Positions 1 to 5,228 of a stretch of DNA of 11,686 nt are shown here, piece after piece (within the stretch, counting starts at the first letter, position 1; the number at the start of each line of letters is the position of its first letter). The translations under genes were made by a program, and so were the position numbers. The notes under the pieces were generated by a model. It saw only the letters and a list, made by a program, of their open reading frames with translations, ran no database searches and had not been told where the DNA came from. Source of the stretch: a bacterium (GTDB lineage Bacteria > Zhuqueibacterota > Zhuqueibacteria > Zhuqueibacterales > Zhuqueibacteraceae); NCBI GenBank assembly GCA_044869275.1, contig JBIOXB010000246.1, positions 1 to 11,686 on the forward strand, in the 5' to 3' direction.

Positions 1-50
1 AGTATGCGGCGTTTTTTTCTATATCGCTCAGTAGAAACATGAGGATTTGC

Positions 51-163: not shown

Positions 164-976
164 ATGGCTCGAGTTCAGTTTTTGGGAAGAGGGCTGGCAT
201 TCATCACGTTTGCGCTTCTGTTCATCATCAACGGCTGCAACAATTCGCCCACAGGGTCGAATGGCGGCCGCGTCTCGCTCACCGTCAGAAATTTCTCGAC
301 GCCGACGGCGACGATGCTGTCCAAGGCAGCCGCGGTGATGGCTGTCGATTCGATCCAGATCACCAGAGCGCGTTTGGTGGTGAATAGTATCGATTTTGAA
401 GGAGGGGACGAGCAATCAGACAACGATGACATGGAGTTTATGACGGCACCGGTGGTGGTCCAGCTGAGCATGACCGACACCATCCAATCCATTGCGATCG
501 CCAACATTCCGAACGGCTCCTATTCTGAAATTGAAATCGAGATCAGCACCGTTTCAGATTCCGATCTTGCCGTTCTGTCTCCGGCGGATCGTGCCCCCTT
601 TGCTGATTTCATCGCCGGACCGCGCTACAGTGTGATTATTGAAGGCATGGTGTATCAGAACGGCATGGCGCCGCAGCCCTTCGTGTTCAATAGCGCCATT
701 TACGCCGAGCAGGAGTACGACCTGAATCCGCCGCTGGTCGTGTCCGCCGATAACCCCACGGCGAATGTCACCTTGGCCATTTATTCCTCCAACTGGTTCC
801 TCGGGCCGAACGGCATTTTGCTCGATCCCACCGTTCCCGCGAACAGAACCGCGATCGAAAGTAATCTCAAACGGTCCATCTCGATGTATGAAGATGATGA
901 TCGCGACGGGGATGATGACGACGGAGACATTGATGATGGTGACGATGGAGATGATGATGGAGATGGAGGCCGGTAA
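164..976 (+). CDS. Secreted lipoprotein of unknown function (possibly DUF4382-like), with Asp/Gly-rich C-terminal tail
   Basis: GGAGG at 155-159 before ATG 164. N-terminus MARVQFLGRGLAFITFALLFIING-C has basic residues, a hydrophobic stretch and a lipobox-like Cys, then a Ser/Gly/Asn linker. Tail is EDDDRDGDDDDGDIDDGDDGDDDGDGGR. The family assignment is a guess. Confidence 0.8.
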   Translation: MARVQFLGRGLAFITFALLFIINGCNNSPTGSNGGRVSLTVRNFSTPTATMLSKAAAVMAVDSIQITRARLVVNSIDFEGGDEQSDNDDMEFMTAPVVVQLSMTDTIQSIAIANIPNGSYSEIEIEISTVSDSDLAVLSPADRAPFADFIAGPRYSVIIEGMVYQNGMAPQPFVFNSAIYAEQEYDLNPPLVVSADNPTANVTLAIYSSNWFLGPNGILLDPTVPANRTAIESNLKRSISMYEDDDRDGDDDDGDIDDGDDGDDDGDGGR

Positions 977-1235: not shown

Positions 1236-1272
1236 AAATAAAAAGGGCCTCGTCTCCAAGGAGACAAGGCCC
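1236..1272 (-). terminator. Rho-independent terminator of the minus-strand small transcript
   Basis: Minus strand reads GGGCCUUGUCUCC-UU-GGAGACGAGGCCC-UUUUUAUUU: GC-rich stem containing a U-G pair (a C-A mismatch on +), directly followed by a U tract. Confidence 0.85.
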
Positions 1273-1304
1273 AACTTGCTTCCGGGAGCCGCCGCAGCGA
1301 GCTG

Positions 1305-1364
1305 CTAGCAAACGCCACCGGAGGCTCCCATGGATTTATTTAGAATGGGATCACCTCCTTTCAT
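1305..1364 (-). CDS. Possible 19-aa mini-ORF MKGGDPILNKSMGASGGVC; alternative in-frame starts ATT at 1346 or ATG at 1331
   Basis: ATG AAA GGA GGT GAT CCC ATT CTA AAT AAA TCC ATG GGA GCC TCC GGT GGC GTT TGC TAG read from 1364 to 1305. Whether it is translated is unproven. Confidence 0.3.
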   Translation of the reverse strand: MKGGDPILNKSMGASGGVC

Positions 1365-1431
1365 CAGGGCCTCGCGTGACGCGCAGAAAATCTCCCTGAC
1401 AAATTTCCCGCGCAGCGTGAATTACCCGCCA

Positions 1432-1460
1432 AACCTACCACAAAATTTTGACAAAGTCAA
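1432..1460 (-). promoter_or_regulatory. sigma70-type promoter for the minus-strand small transcript
   Basis: TTGACT (1460-1455), 17-nt spacer, TAGGTT (1437-1432) preceded by an extended -10 TG-n; predicted start ~1425. Confidence 0.65.
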
Positions 1461-1637: not shown

Positions 1638-4600
1638 ATGTCCGAAATCGTCGAAACGCCAAAGGCCTTCGGGCCCAATGCTTGGTTGATAGAAGAAATG
1701 TTCCGCCAATATCGCGAGAATCCCGGTGCTTTGAGCGAAAGCTGGCGCGATTTTTTTGCCGATTATCGCCCGCTTGGCATGCCGGAAGAAACCGTGACCG
1801 TCCCGGCAGTGCCGGCGTCCCAGCCACGGCTGGAGCAAAAAGAAAATGGGCATGCCACGGCCATTCCACCGGGTGCGGTGGCGCTCAAGGGCGGCTTCGT
1901 GCGCATTGTGGAAAACATGGAACGCAGCTTGAGCATTCCAACGGCAACCTCCGTGCGCACGATGCCAGTTAAAATCCTGGAAGAGAACCGCCGCGTCATT
2001 AACCAATATCTTGCCGACACCACTGGCGCGAAAATGAGCTTCACCCACATCATCGCCTGGGCCGTCGTGAAAGCTTTGCAGGCCATGCCGGTGATGAAGA
2101 CTTCTTTTTTGCAAGTGAACGGCACACCTTACAAAGTCATGCCCGAGCACATCAACTTTGGCCTGGCGGTGGACGTCGAGCGCAAAGACGGAACGCGGAG
2201 CTTGATGGTGCCCAACATCAAAAAAGCGGACACCCTCGATTTCAGCGGTTTTTTTGCAGCCTATAATGACATCATTCGCAAAGTGTTTACGAATCAAGTC
2301 CAGCCTGGAGATTTTGCCGACACCACGGTGACGCTGACGAACCCCGGCACGATTGGCACGTTGCATTCCGTGCCGCGCTTGATGCCCTCGCAAGGCTTGA
2401 TCGTGGCGACCGGTGCGATCGATTACCCGCCGGAGTATCAATCCGCCGATCCGCACACCATTGCACGGCTGGGGATCAGCAAAGTGATGACCGTGACCAG
2501 CACCTACGACCATCGCGTGATTCAAGGCGCGGAAAGCGGCATGTTTCTGCGCGTCCTGCATCGGCTCCTGCAGGGCGAGGAGAATTTCTACGATGAGATC
2601 TTCGCCAGCATGAAGATTCCTTACGAGCCGGTGCGCCACACCCGCGACGTGAATCCGGTGTTCGATGGCGTCAGCTCGCAGGAAGCCTCGATTGAAAAGC
2701 AGGCGCACGTGTTGCAATTGATCAATATGTATCGCGTGCGCGGACATTTGATCGCCAACACCAATCCCTTGCGCCTGGAAGTGCCGACACACGCCGAGCT
2801 CGACCCGTCGCGTTATGGCTTGACGGTGTGGGATTACGACCGCGAATTCATCACCGACGGCCTGGCCGGCAAACGGCGCGCGACCCTGCGCGAGATTCTG
2901 GACATTCTGCGCGAAGCTTATTGCGGCACGATCGGCGTCGAGTATATGTTCATTCAAGAACCGGAACAAAAAGCCTGGATTCAACAGCGCGTCGAGGGCG
3001 TGCCGCGCGCCAAGTGGCTGAATGCGGATATGAAGCAACGCCTGCTGGCAAAACTGAACGCCGCAGAAGCCTTCGAAAAATTCCTGCAGACCAAATATGT
3101 CGGCCAAAAACGCTTCGGCCTGGAGGGCGCGGAATCGGCGATTCCCATGCTCGATATTTTGCTGCAGCGCGGCGCCGAGGCCGGCATGGAGGAAGTGGTG
3201 ATGGGCATGGCCCATCGCGGCCGCTTGAACGTGCTCGCCAATATTCTGAACAAAACTTACGAGCAAATTTTCCTGCGCTTCGAGGACAATCCCGACCCCA
3301 ACAGTCGCGAAGGCACGGGCGACGTGAAGTACCATCTCGGCGCGACCGGTGTCTTCGCTGCGCCGCATGGGCAAAAGCTGCAAGTTGCGCTTGCGCCGAA
3401 TCCCAGCCATCTCGAGGCGGTCGATCCCGTGGTCGAGGGCATGGTGCGCGCGAAGCAGGAGATGCGCGGCGATGCTTTGCGCGAGCGCATCATGGCCGTG
3501 CTCATACACGGGGACGCGGCCTTTGCCGGACAGGGAGTGGTGGCGGAAACGCTGAACCTCAGCGCTTTATCCGGCTATCGCACTGGGGGCACGGTGCATT
3601 TGGTGGTGAATAATGGCATCGGCTTCACCACCGCACCCGCAGATGCGCGTTCGAGCGTGTATGCCACCGACGTGGCTAAAATGGTGCAAGCGCCGATCTT
3701 TCACGTGAACGGGAATGATCCCGAAGCCTGCTTGCGCGTGATGGAGCTGGCGTTTGCGTTCCGGCAGCAATTCAAAAAAGACGTCGTGGTGGATTTGGTC
3801 TGTTACCGCCGCCACGGCCACAATGAAAGCGACGAACCCAGCTACACGCAGCCCATTATGTACGGGCGCATCCGTGACATGCGCTCGGTGCGCAAATTGT
3901 ATACGGAACTTCTCGTGCGTCGCGGTGAATTGACCAAGGAACAAGCCGAAGCAACGCTCGAGGAGTATCAAAAAATTCTCGAAACTGCTTTTGAGGCCAC
4001 GCAGGAAAACCTCACGATCACGGCCGCGTTGCCGAAAGAGCCGCCGCTGGACAAGGTGTGGCCGATGATTCCGACCGGCGTGCCGCGCGCGGTGCTCGAG
4101 GAGATTGCGCATGCCTTGACCAGTTTTCCCATGGAATTCAAGCCGCATCCCAAATTGGCGAAACAGCTCGCCAGCCGCGCTTCCATGCTCGACGAAGACG
4201 AAGTAGATTGGGGCATGGCCGAAGCGCTGGCGATCGGTTCTCTGCTGCTCGAAGGAAAGCCCGTGCGCATCTCGGGACAGGATTCGCAGCGCGGCACGTT
4301 CAGCCACCGGCACGCCGTGCTGGTGGATTATCATACCGAAAAGGAATACACGCCGCTCAATCACGTTCGCCCGGAACAAGCGCAGTTGATGATTTACGAC
4401 AGCCTACTCAGCGAATATGCCGTGCTCGGCTTTGATTACGGTTATTCCGTGGCAAACCAAGAGGCCTTGGTGATGTGGGAGGCGCAGTTCGGCGATTTTA
4501 TGAATGGCGCACAAATCATCATCGATCAATTCATATCTTCGGCGGAAGACAAATGGGGACAGGTGAGTGGCTTGACCATGCTGCTGCCGCACGGCTTCGA

Positions 4601-5228
4601 AGGCCAAGGCCCGGAGCACTCCAGCGCGCGCTTGGAAAGATTCCTCACTTTATGCGCAGAGGAAAACATGCGCGTCACAGTTCCCAGCACTGCGGCGCAA
4701 TATTTTCACCTGCTGCGCAGCCAGATGCATGCCGGCGTGCTGAAGCCATTAATCGTGATGACGCCCAAGAGCTTGCTGCGCGCACAACAAGCAAAAAGCC
4801 CGGCGCAGGATTTTATCGAAGGCGGATTTCACGTCTTGTTGGACGATCCCCTGCCCGCCGCCGGCGTGCGCCGCATCTTGATGTGCTCGGGTAAAATCGG
4901 CTTTGATCTGATGGAATATCGACAGCAAAACCATATCGAGGATACGGCGATCATTCGCCTCGAGCAGCTTTACCCGTTCCCGTTCGAAGGCCTGAGAGAA
5001 ATTTTCGCGCGCTATCCCCAAGCGCATGATTTGCGCTGGGTGCAGGAAGAGCCGCGCAACATGGGCGCCTGGAGCTTCGTGCGCGCGCGCTTGCGTTACG
5101 TCGCCGCGGAGCATTATCCCATTTCCTACGTCGGCCGCATGCCCAGCGGCAGCCCGGCCACCGGCAGCCAGCGCATTCACCAGCTGGAACAGGAACATAT
5201 CGTAAAGCAGGCCTTTGCAGCACTGTGA
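1638..5228 (+). CDS. sucA: Multifunctional 2-oxoglutarate dehydrogenase/decarboxylase with a fused succinyltransferase (E2) catalytic domain and E1 (Kgd/OdhA type)
   Basis: 1196 aa. N-terminal FGPNAWLIEEMFRQY..P..LSESWRDFF motif; acyltransferase domain with TSTYDHRVIQGAESG; E1o motifs GQKRFGLEG, GMAHRGRLNVL, GDVKYHLG, HGDAAFAGQG...NN (ThDP), RRHGHNESDEP, WEAQFGDF, LLPHGFEGQGPEHSSAR, WVQEEPRNMGAW. Confidence 0.97.
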   Translation: MSEIVETPKAFGPNAWLIEEMFRQYRENPGALSESWRDFFADYRPLGMPEETVTVPAVPASQPRLEQKENGHATAIPPGAVALKGGFVRIVENMERSLSIPTATSVRTMPVKILEENRRVINQYLADTTGAKMSFTHIIAWAVVKALQAMPVMKTSFLQVNGTPYKVMPEHINFGLAVDVERKDGTRSLMVPNIKKADTLDFSGFFAAYNDIIRKVFTNQVQPGDFADTTVTLTNPGTIGTLHSVPRLMPSQGLIVATGAIDYPPEYQSADPHTIARLGISKVMTVTSTYDHRVIQGAESGMFLRVLHRLLQGEENFYDEIFASMKIPYEPVRHTRDVNPVFDGVSSQEASIEKQAHVLQLINMYRVRGHLIANTNPLRLEVPTHAELDPSRYGLTVWDYDREFITDGLAGKRRATLREILDILREAYCGTIGVEYMFIQEPEQKAWIQQRVEGVPRAKWLNADMKQRLLAKLNAAEAFEKFLQTKYVGQKRFGLEGAESAIPMLDILLQRGAEAGMEEVVMGMAHRGRLNVLANILNKTYEQIFLRFEDNPDPNSREGTGDVKYHLGATGVFAAPHGQKLQVALAPNPSHLEAVDPVVEGMVRAKQEMRGDALRERIMAVLIHGDAAFAGQGVVAETLNLSALSGYRTGGTVHLVVNNGIGFTTAPADARSSVYATDVAKMVQAPIFHVNGNDPEACLRVMELAFAFRQQFKKDVVVDLVCYRRHGHNESDEPSYTQPIMYGRIRDMRSVRKLYTELLVRRGELTKEQAEATLEEYQKILETAFEATQENLTITAALPKEPPLDKVWPMIPTGVPRAVLEEIAHALTSFPMEFKPHPKLAKQLASRASMLDEDEVDWGMAEALAIGSLLLEGKPVRISGQDSQRGTFSHRHAVLVDYHTEKEYTPLNHVRPEQAQLMIYDSLLSEYAVLGFDYGYSVANQEALVMWEAQFGDFMNGAQIIIDQFISSAEDKWGQVSGLTMLLPHGFEGQGPEHSSARLERFLTLCAEENMRVTVPSTAAQYFHLLRSQMHAGVLKPLIVMTPKSLLRAQQAKSPAQDFIEGGFHVLLDDPLPAAGVRRILMCSGKIGFDLMEYRQQNHIEDTAIIRLEQLYPFPFEGLREIFARYPQAHDLRWVQEEPRNMGAWSFVRARLRYVAAEHYPISYVGRMPSGSPATGSQRIHQLEQEHIVKQAFAAL

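Follow-up and report, generated by a model that had tools for sequence, protein, structure and literature searches.

A conserved, unannotated small RNA gene with an extended Shine-Dalgarno sequence and a short open frame, resembling the rre mRNAs

The minus strand of positions 1236..1460 of the window (the whole stretch of DNA analysed, 11,686 nt) holds a free-standing gene for a small folded RNA of a predicted length of ~190 nt, and this RNA gene is real, conserved and unannotated. Judged from comparison of its homologues, the RNA is a mini-mRNA with a selected open frame and not a non-coding RNA; thus, of an earlier description made from the letters of the window alone (hereafter the sequence-only reading), which had proposed a stand-alone small RNA, the stand-alone nature was retained and the non-coding nature was given up. 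Genes of this class escape annotation twice, because the frame is too short and because a normal start codon is absent. The parts of the gene, its open frame, the P1 stem, hairpin A and the terminator are supported by comparison among homologous sequences. The features in the window, listed from the promoter to the terminator, are as follows.

1460-1455, minus strand: −35 hexamer TTGACT, read from the sequence
1432..1440, minus strand: extended −10, TGn followed by TAGGTT (TAGGTT at 1437-1432), read from the sequence
1381..1413, minus strand: P1, the 5′-domain stem, with three G-U pairs among its 13 bp (1413-1401 with 1393-1381), from the fold
1365..1398, minus strand: P2, stem of a probable pseudoknot, loop 1398-1394 with 1369-1365; 94.5-98% of cells paired
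1348..1362, minus strand: extended Shine-Dalgarno (SD) sequence, 15 nt, complement of the genome's own 16S 3′ tail
1320..1358, minus strand: hairpin A (closed), in which the in-frame anti-SD arm 1331-1320 pairs with the SD and the start codon; 99.4% of cells paired
1305..1346 (1346-1305), minus strand: mini-ORF of 13 codons, AUU start and UAG stop; open in 84/84 distinct homologues
1282..1333, minus strand: hairpin B (open), mutually exclusive with hairpin A, stop codon at its tip, from the fold
1236..1272, minus strand: intrinsic terminator, 12-bp stem 1272-1245 plus U tract 1244-1236; 8/8 stem pairs covary in homologues

Promoter, terminator and extended Shine-Dalgarno sequence

The sequence-only reading had placed a TTGACT-17-TAGGTT promoter on the minus strand, and both hexamers were confirmed in the sequence with a spacer of 17 nt; from the promoter spacing, transcription would start near 1425 of the same strand. 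The window promoter was missed by a consensus promoter scanner because its −10 matches at only 3 of 6 positions, and promoter-like sites lying 85-145 nt upstream of the SD were found in 57 of 84 homologues versus 3.0 expected from shuffles. The region folds with z = −4.0, none of 200 shuffles being equally stable, and the fold reproduced the three structural elements claimed earlier, namely the 13-bp hairpin with three G-U pairs (1413-1401/1393-1381), a second hairpin (1329-1323/1290-1284) and the intrinsic terminator with its U tract. A stand-alone minus-strand transcript of ~190 nt, with a predicted promoter, terminator and ends, is supported.

The claimed 15-nt complement of the 16S rRNA 3′ end was compared with the end of the genome's own 16S gene and all 15 of 15 bases paired; with the mature 16S end, the pairing in vivo would be 13-15 bp. 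Throughout the 6.67-Mb genome the 15-mer occurs twice, at this locus and as the complement of the end of the single assembled 16S gene. The computed duplex between the SD of this RNA and the 14-nt 16S tail reaches −25.1 kcal/mol, compared with a median of −5.5 and a strongest other value of −24.0 kcal/mol across the 3446 long ORFs of the genome. Among the 20 genomes in which both ends were read, 14/14 bases of the tail paired in 15 and 13/14 in 5. Covariation between the SD and the host 16S tail was not detected in these genomes, 19 of the 20 tails being identical, and genomes with a GAGAGG-variant SD carry a normal 16S tail. The three bases 5′ of GGAGG are purines in 78, 84 and 83 of the 84 homologues, are left unpaired by hairpin A, and in SD variants pairing with the 16S tail is kept.

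Other genes with notable SD or start regions were encountered. A large sensor-like ORF (G000:C104, minus strand) has an SD of −24.0 kcal/mol, almost as strong as that of this RNA, and an AUG at 6-nt spacing. At about 64190-64300 of G000:C241 (minus strand), a 12-nt extended SD precedes a UUG-started 31-codon ORF rich in Lys, Arg and His, which in our estimate resembles ribosomal protein bS22. The infC gene of the genome (L468 1700-1790, minus strand; G000:C109) has no in-frame AUG, GUG or UUG between the preceding stop and the conserved start region, the start candidates being CUG, GUC or ACG behind SD-like stretches. In one KSB1 genome negative by the covariance model introduced below (L225, G034:C1), an extended SD stands before a GUG-started small Cys-containing ORF.

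Distribution and genomic context

Homologues were collected at several depths. BLAST over 40 relatives gave 12 loci, all homologous on reading, and a sequence pattern run over 167 genomes of the phylum gave 40 matches, of which 30 loci were read and comprised 23 members and 7 chance or 16S matches. In a species-level genome collection, a pattern that fixed the SD and the anti-SD arm and left the start codon free retrieved 111 loci, 60 of them with both the upstream P2 pairing and the terminator, and 3 further loci were judged members by eye; depositor labels for 80 of the 111 name candidate division KSB1, Calditrichota, Ignavibacteriae, Bacteroidetes, Fibrobacterota, Nitrospina and one Pseudomonadales genome. 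Single-copy homologues thus appear, as far as sequence likeness identifies them, in KSB1, Calditrichota, Fibrobacterota, Ignavibacteria/Bacteroidota, Nitrospina and one gammaproteobacterial family. These counts include kin that are not independent, and most members were found by patterns fixing part of the SD and anti-SD. The unpublished genome G001 is within the BLAST, pattern and R1 tallies and the first alignment; G014, G507, G609 and G775 were counted in tallies only, and none of the conclusions rests on these five genomes.

With R1, a covariance model of the core built from 55 sequences, exactly one copy was found in 36/133 genomes of the KSB1 phylum and in 25/71 of the Calditrichota-centred phylum, and the distribution was patchy by family. 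The RNA was not found by R1 in 97/133 phylum genomes, near-complete close relatives included; because of this, it is taken to be dispensable in non-carriers or diverged past the model. No divergent substitute was found in five model-negative relatives, among all 5 SD-like matches of one genome (G002) and 25 of the 98 others in the remaining four. In the Pseudomonadales family, 12 of 60 other members carry the RNA; R1 matched 1 of 101 genomes from the order of the Pseudomonadales carrier, and across the class Gammaproteobacteria pattern matches occurred in 27/401 genomes (controls 2) with no further member confirmed among the matches listed. Around Nitrospina, a pattern matched in 8/120 genomes, 7 of them members. 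Metagenomes yielded at least 120 pattern loci, and 52 of the first 100 had R1 E values below 1e-6; the 27 pattern matches in viral contigs were mostly coding repeats and included no members. Some metagenome groups with CCCUG and an extended SD have frames of 6, 12, 18 or 20 codons and GUG or UUG starts; they match R1 marginally or not at all and gave no Rfam match, and they are probably sister families.

The divergent neighbour in the window is a fused SucB/SucA 2-oxoglutarate dehydrogenase gene (1638-5228, plus strand), whose 1196-aa product has a 2-oxoacid acyltransferase catalytic domain preceding the E1 domains, and it shares 190 bp of intergenic DNA with the RNA. The connection with sucA drawn by the sequence-only reading turned out to be incidental: sucA was found upstream at only 2 of the 13 loci examined, those of the window and of one relative, and neighbours differ in kind and orientation, with the downstream gene on the same strand in 32 loci and the opposite strand in 22, and the upstream gene on the same strand in 32 and the opposite in 23. 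The convergent neighbour in the window (164-976, plus strand) is a 270-aa ORF with a lipoprotein-like N-terminus, an Asp-rich tail and no Pfam match; between it and the terminator lie two long imperfect A/T-rich palindromes (995-1084 and 1135-1215) of a dispersed repeat family with about 93 occurrences spread over 68 of the genome's contigs. Within the gammaproteobacterial family, this RNA occupies a fixed place before a convergent gene that reads, from its translation, as LysR/MetR-like.

Searching RNA runs gave, in 4/4 runs from four studies, close-relative contigs over 1223/1279-1370/1408 and none over sucA, and two of these contigs end at 1407-1408 in adapter sequence. The run shares are small (0.04-0.14), the contigs give no strand, ends or level and cover what they were found with, and the relatives' sucA may be too diverged to match, so that they are read as only a faint indication that a small RNA is expressed.

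The mini-frame and the alternative folds

In the window RNA, the AUU start stands 7 nt after GGAGG, and what the sequence-only reading had called an AU-rich linker is indeed present but is actually codons 1-5 of the conserved 13-codon frame. For the frame count, 88 member loci were entered, 87 parsed and 84 were distinct, the single unparsed locus having a GUU at 6-nt spacing. Within nt 4-35 of the frame, early stops were found in 0/84 homologues versus 71 and 74 in the other two frames, and shuffling gave an expectation of 32.8 in codons 2-6. The frame length varies from 12 to 16 codons and is 13 or 14 in 79/84, length changes being whole codons, and the frame ends at UAG in 54, UAA in 23 and UGA in 7. 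An upstream in-frame AUG that overlaps the SD in the window was rejected as the start, as it is not conserved in the homologues.

Start codons of the 84 genome homologues are AUU (48), AUC (21), AUA (9), UUG (5) and GUG (1), with no AUG. A rule that this RNA never uses AUG, true of these 84, was overturned by 8 of 58 listed metagenome loci having P2 and a terminator, which start with AUC (31), UUG (8), AUG (8), AUU (6), GUG (3) and AUA (2) under a search pattern that fixed U as the second start base. A weak start codon is thus a usual feature of this RNA, not a required one. In 12 members a C faces the third base of the start codon; AUG would pair better there, yet all of them keep AUH.

To what extent the peptide is constrained was estimated from 65 close pairs (149 transitions, 95 transversions), which gave pN/pS values of 0.64 (kappa 1), 0.74 (0.58-0.91; kappa 2) and 0.83 (0.66-1.03; kappa 4). 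These values suggest a weak peptide constraint, far from ordinary coding constraint. The invariant G-A-S codons showed 4 silent changes in 194 sites, and their constancy is, by this count, a constraint at the level of bases. Ser recurs at codons 3 and 5 (81 and 65 of 98) and is written with both AGY and UCN codons, which hints at some selection on the peptide; no AGY/UCN exchange was seen across the 65 close pairs. Inside the gammaproteobacterial clade the peptide is well kept.

Conservation of the motif and hairpins in relatives was borne out, with covariation in P1 and in the terminator. Among 55 homologues, 12/12 modelled pairs of P1 change on both sides, while both-side changes in P2 were found at only 1/5 pairs, in 4 sequences; P2 crossing P1 would probably form a 5′ H-type pseudoknot, for which the covariation is thin. 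For all modelled pairs of the 55 sequences, 94.3% of cells pair versus 86.1% when shuffled and 40-52% in slid controls. In hairpin A, where CCUCC at 1324-1320 can hide the SD, 2/12 pairs change on both sides, a constancy partly set by the search pattern, in which an invariant GGAGG/CCUCC was demanded; the anti-SD arm is nearly invariant among homologues. Of four members found only by the model and having GAGAGG, 2 carry CCUCU opposite, and in two model-only members an SD-extension base changed together with its partner; as these members were not retrieved by the pattern, they support hairpin A independently.

When the ribosome footprint was forced open, the CCUCC arm re-paired downstream as hairpin B in 64/65 homologues. 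The closed fold was lower than the forced-open one in 62/65 by a median of 5.8 kcal/mol, an advantage far below the energy supplied by the 16S duplex. Hairpin A dominates in only 36/65 homologues, and for the window sequence without a ribosome hairpin B is slightly favoured (−56.8 vs −54.7 kcal/mol). The computed pairing between the 5′ end and the stop-codon loop (own −4.7, cross −3.7, shuffled −3.3 kcal/mol; 55/83 beat the cross median) makes a long-range contact of these two parts a matter of speculation. As to variants, one KSB1 subgroup has an additional hairpin between the promoter and P1, and another has a 35-45-base insert 3′ of the stop codon, the end of which is complementary to the 5′ end of the RNA; in one member (L173 341-574), the 5′ domain lies inside a near-perfect 230-base inverted repeat, either an inverted duplication or an assembly artefact.

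Likeness to the rre mRNAs and a candidate mechanism

The sequence-only reading had not recognised a named family, and an Rfam search gave no family at cut-off for the window, 18 homologue loci or 20 metagenome loci; the best match for the window is CC2171 (RF01867), with 23.3 bits versus a gathering cut-off of 75 and only the SD and terminator aligned. Novelty stands in this sense and is lessened in another, as the ribosome-binding site, the spacing, the tiny frame and the SD-hiding hairpin already define the rre small mRNAs. The identical 15-mer also begins the CC2171 consensus, where a single base separates it from a GUG, as in the window spacing, and two of three fetched members were parsed and have 20-codon frames. 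Unlike this RNA, CC2171 has a short, A/C-rich leader without P1 and P2, and R1 matched none of three CC2171/rre loci.

In tmRNA, a pseudoknot precedes a short frame whose stop codon lies in a hairpin loop, and this RNA likewise has a pseudoknot, on the probable assignment above, and then a short frame with the stop in a hairpin loop. It lacks a tRNA-like domain, which tmRNA has together with a resume codon, and possesses its own SD and start; ARAGORN found no tmRNA in the window and one separate tmRNA elsewhere in the genome.

The rreB (Bradyrhizobiaceae) and rreR (Rhodobacterales) small mRNAs were described by Hahn et al. (RNA Biol 2016; PMC5711450), where relatives are reported only from Alphaproteobacteria. 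In that account, rreB has a 17-nt 16S complement, a GUG start, 14 codons and an SD-hiding hairpin, binds to and co-sediments with 30S, is weakly translated and yields a soluble 60-nt ORF fragment; its lifetime without the start codon is 37 instead of 10 min, and its 20-fold overexpression left growth unchanged. The RreB and RreR peptides are conserved inside their clades, and the synthetic peptides are unstructured (PMC5711450). Because the analogous rreB co-sediments with 30S, tight 30S binding by this RNA is plausible; and because overexpressed rreB had no growth effect, the plain ribosome sponge put forward by the sequence-only reading is doubtful.

This RNA and the rre mRNAs have in common a small stand-alone transcript with a promoter and terminator (predicted here), an extended SD core, a suboptimal start codon spaced 7 nt from GGAGG, the masking of SD and start in a hairpin from which 5′ bases stay free, and a genomic context that is not conserved; the frame, 14-18 codons in the rre test and 13 in the window (12-16 in 84 homologues), was counted as agreeing. 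They differ in the 16S complement, which in rre is 16-17 nt and runs into the first base of the GUG start, whereas it is 13-15 nt here, and the 15 nt of the window end one base before the start, a near miss of the rre test of at least 16 nt reaching the start. In rreB the complement is preceded by just 8 nt, too few for a pseudoknot, whereas ~60 nt with P1 and the probable P2 are found here; further differences are the starts (GUG in rre, mostly AUU, AUC or AUA here), hairpin B as an alternative fold carrying the stop codon at its tip, the peptide (conserved per clade in rre, apparently weakly constrained here, with pN/pS of 0.74-0.83, yet well kept in the gammaproteobacterial clade), and the occurrence of this RNA in other phyla. 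By analogy, the RNA would act in the manner of an rre mRNA; by strict measures of complement length, leader and model match it falls outside that group, and it would be a variant form. On this comparison the closest known kind is rreB/rreR/CC2171, of which this RNA would be a pseudoknotted cousin. No description of this pseudoknotted family was found in the open-access literature as far as its texts were accessible, the supplements of PMC11109978 and bioRxiv 10.1101/2022.01.24.477521 lying outside that scope.

Genes pairing an extended SD with a non-canonical start (infC, S. aureus cvfC1 and ccpN) resemble this RNA in the long SD, the AUU or AUA start and low translation (PMC13009471), but their SDs head ordinary protein genes, whereas only 13 codons and a terminator follow here. 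In S. aureus, AUU/AUA starts behind an extended SD work at about 10% of the AUG level, and discrimination of IF3 against AUU-type near-cognate starts is established, as cited in that paper (PMC13009471).

Our preferred reading, held with somewhat better than even confidence, is that of a ribosome-gated mini-mRNA of the rre kind, which would act as an RNA through 30S binding and occasional translation, its peptide being of secondary importance. The ~190-nt RNA would arise from a sigma-70 promoter, and in it hairpin A would form first and cover GGAGG and the start codon, with the A-rich 5′ bases of the extended SD left as a toehold. The 16S tail would invade hairpin A through 13-15 bp (about −25 kcal/mol), and the freed anti-SD arm would form hairpin B just ahead of the ribosome and keep the open state, while the pseudoknot would lie next to the SD helix, where the mRNA leaves the ribosome. 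Slow initiation and escape would follow from the long duplex and from the near-cognate AUU, which IF3 disfavours, so that 30S or initiation complexes dwell, and a rare full translation would melt hairpin B, stop at its tip, free the ribosome and reset or destroy the RNA. In this scheme the A/B hairpin switch is computed only, the 30S binding, weak translation and start-dependent decay are borrowed from rreB, and the role of the pseudoknot and the gating by IF3 are what we infer. The purpose would most likely be to park free 30S reversibly or to gauge it together with the capacity for initiation.

A peptide of 12-16 residues could instead be the product, the long SD, hairpin A and weak start then serving only to shut off translation tightly except under a special condition. 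We hold this unlikely: the frame, its length and its stop are conserved, Ser at codons 3 and 5 comes from both codon families, pN/pS lies below 1, and RreB and RreR are conserved within clades (PMC5711450), but the pN/pS of 0.74-0.83 is far from ordinary coding constraint, the close pairs hold no AGY/UCN exchange, the fixed G-A-S is held at base level, the two Ser codons of the gammaproteobacterial members can pair mutually in hairpin A, and synthetic RreB and RreR are unstructured in the same account. A dual-function sRNA, in which docking affects only how stable the RNA is or what shape it takes, while the RNA or a fragment cut from it pairs with other mRNAs through the CCUCC arm or loops, would accord with the nearly invariant anti-SD arm and with the soluble 60-nt fragment of rreB (PMC5711450); as CCUCC is paired in both predicted states and the SD is the only long conserved single strand, we regard it as improbable.

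Very unlikely is a CreT-like RNA toxin or addiction element sequestering ribosomes or a tRNA, even though a strong SD, a mini-ORF, a hairpin and action as an RNA make up the anatomy of CreT (PMC8501985 and PMC10097628) and the distribution is patchy. CreT needs efficient initiation, with tandem rare codons in the archaeal cases (PMC8501985), and adjoins CRISPR-cas under CreA control, whereas this RNA has weak starts and variable codons, no cas gene was found among the six window proteins scanned, the RNA is single copy and none of the 27 viral-contig matches is a member. Least credible is regulation in cis, with the RNA serving sucA or the next gene as a leader, attenuator or antisense transcript, a reading suggested by the 190 bp common to the RNA and sucA and already largely refuted by the neighbourhood, in which sucA is upstream in 2/13 loci, both neighbours take either orientation (32 vs 22 and 32 vs 23), the next gene is convergent in the window, and the fixed co-oriented downstream gene sought in a test for a riboswitch or attenuator leader was not found.

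Extending the ribosome-gated reading, and more as a conjecture that we rate as rather doubtful, the rre RNAs may be only the alphaproteobacterial representatives of an old class of dedicated ribosome-holding RNAs that spans many phyla. In the pseudoknotted form, the pseudoknot on the mRNA exit side and hairpin B on the entry side would together clamp a 30S or initiation complex; the 5′ end might also pair with the stop-codon loop, so that a ring closes around the neck of the 30S. Release would come only when IF3 proofreading slackens enough for the AUU start, the RNA serving as storage or as a fidelity gauge for translation initiation.

Since 2016, rreB has been a one-paper curiosity of Alphaproteobacteria without a known job. 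A richer, single-copy form across at least six phyla would point to wide bacterial selection for a small, barely translated, 30S-docking RNA, and the alignment provides points of attack that were missing for rreB, namely the two alternative hairpins, the probable pseudoknot, the near-cognate starts and a frame whose conservation does not extend to its peptide.
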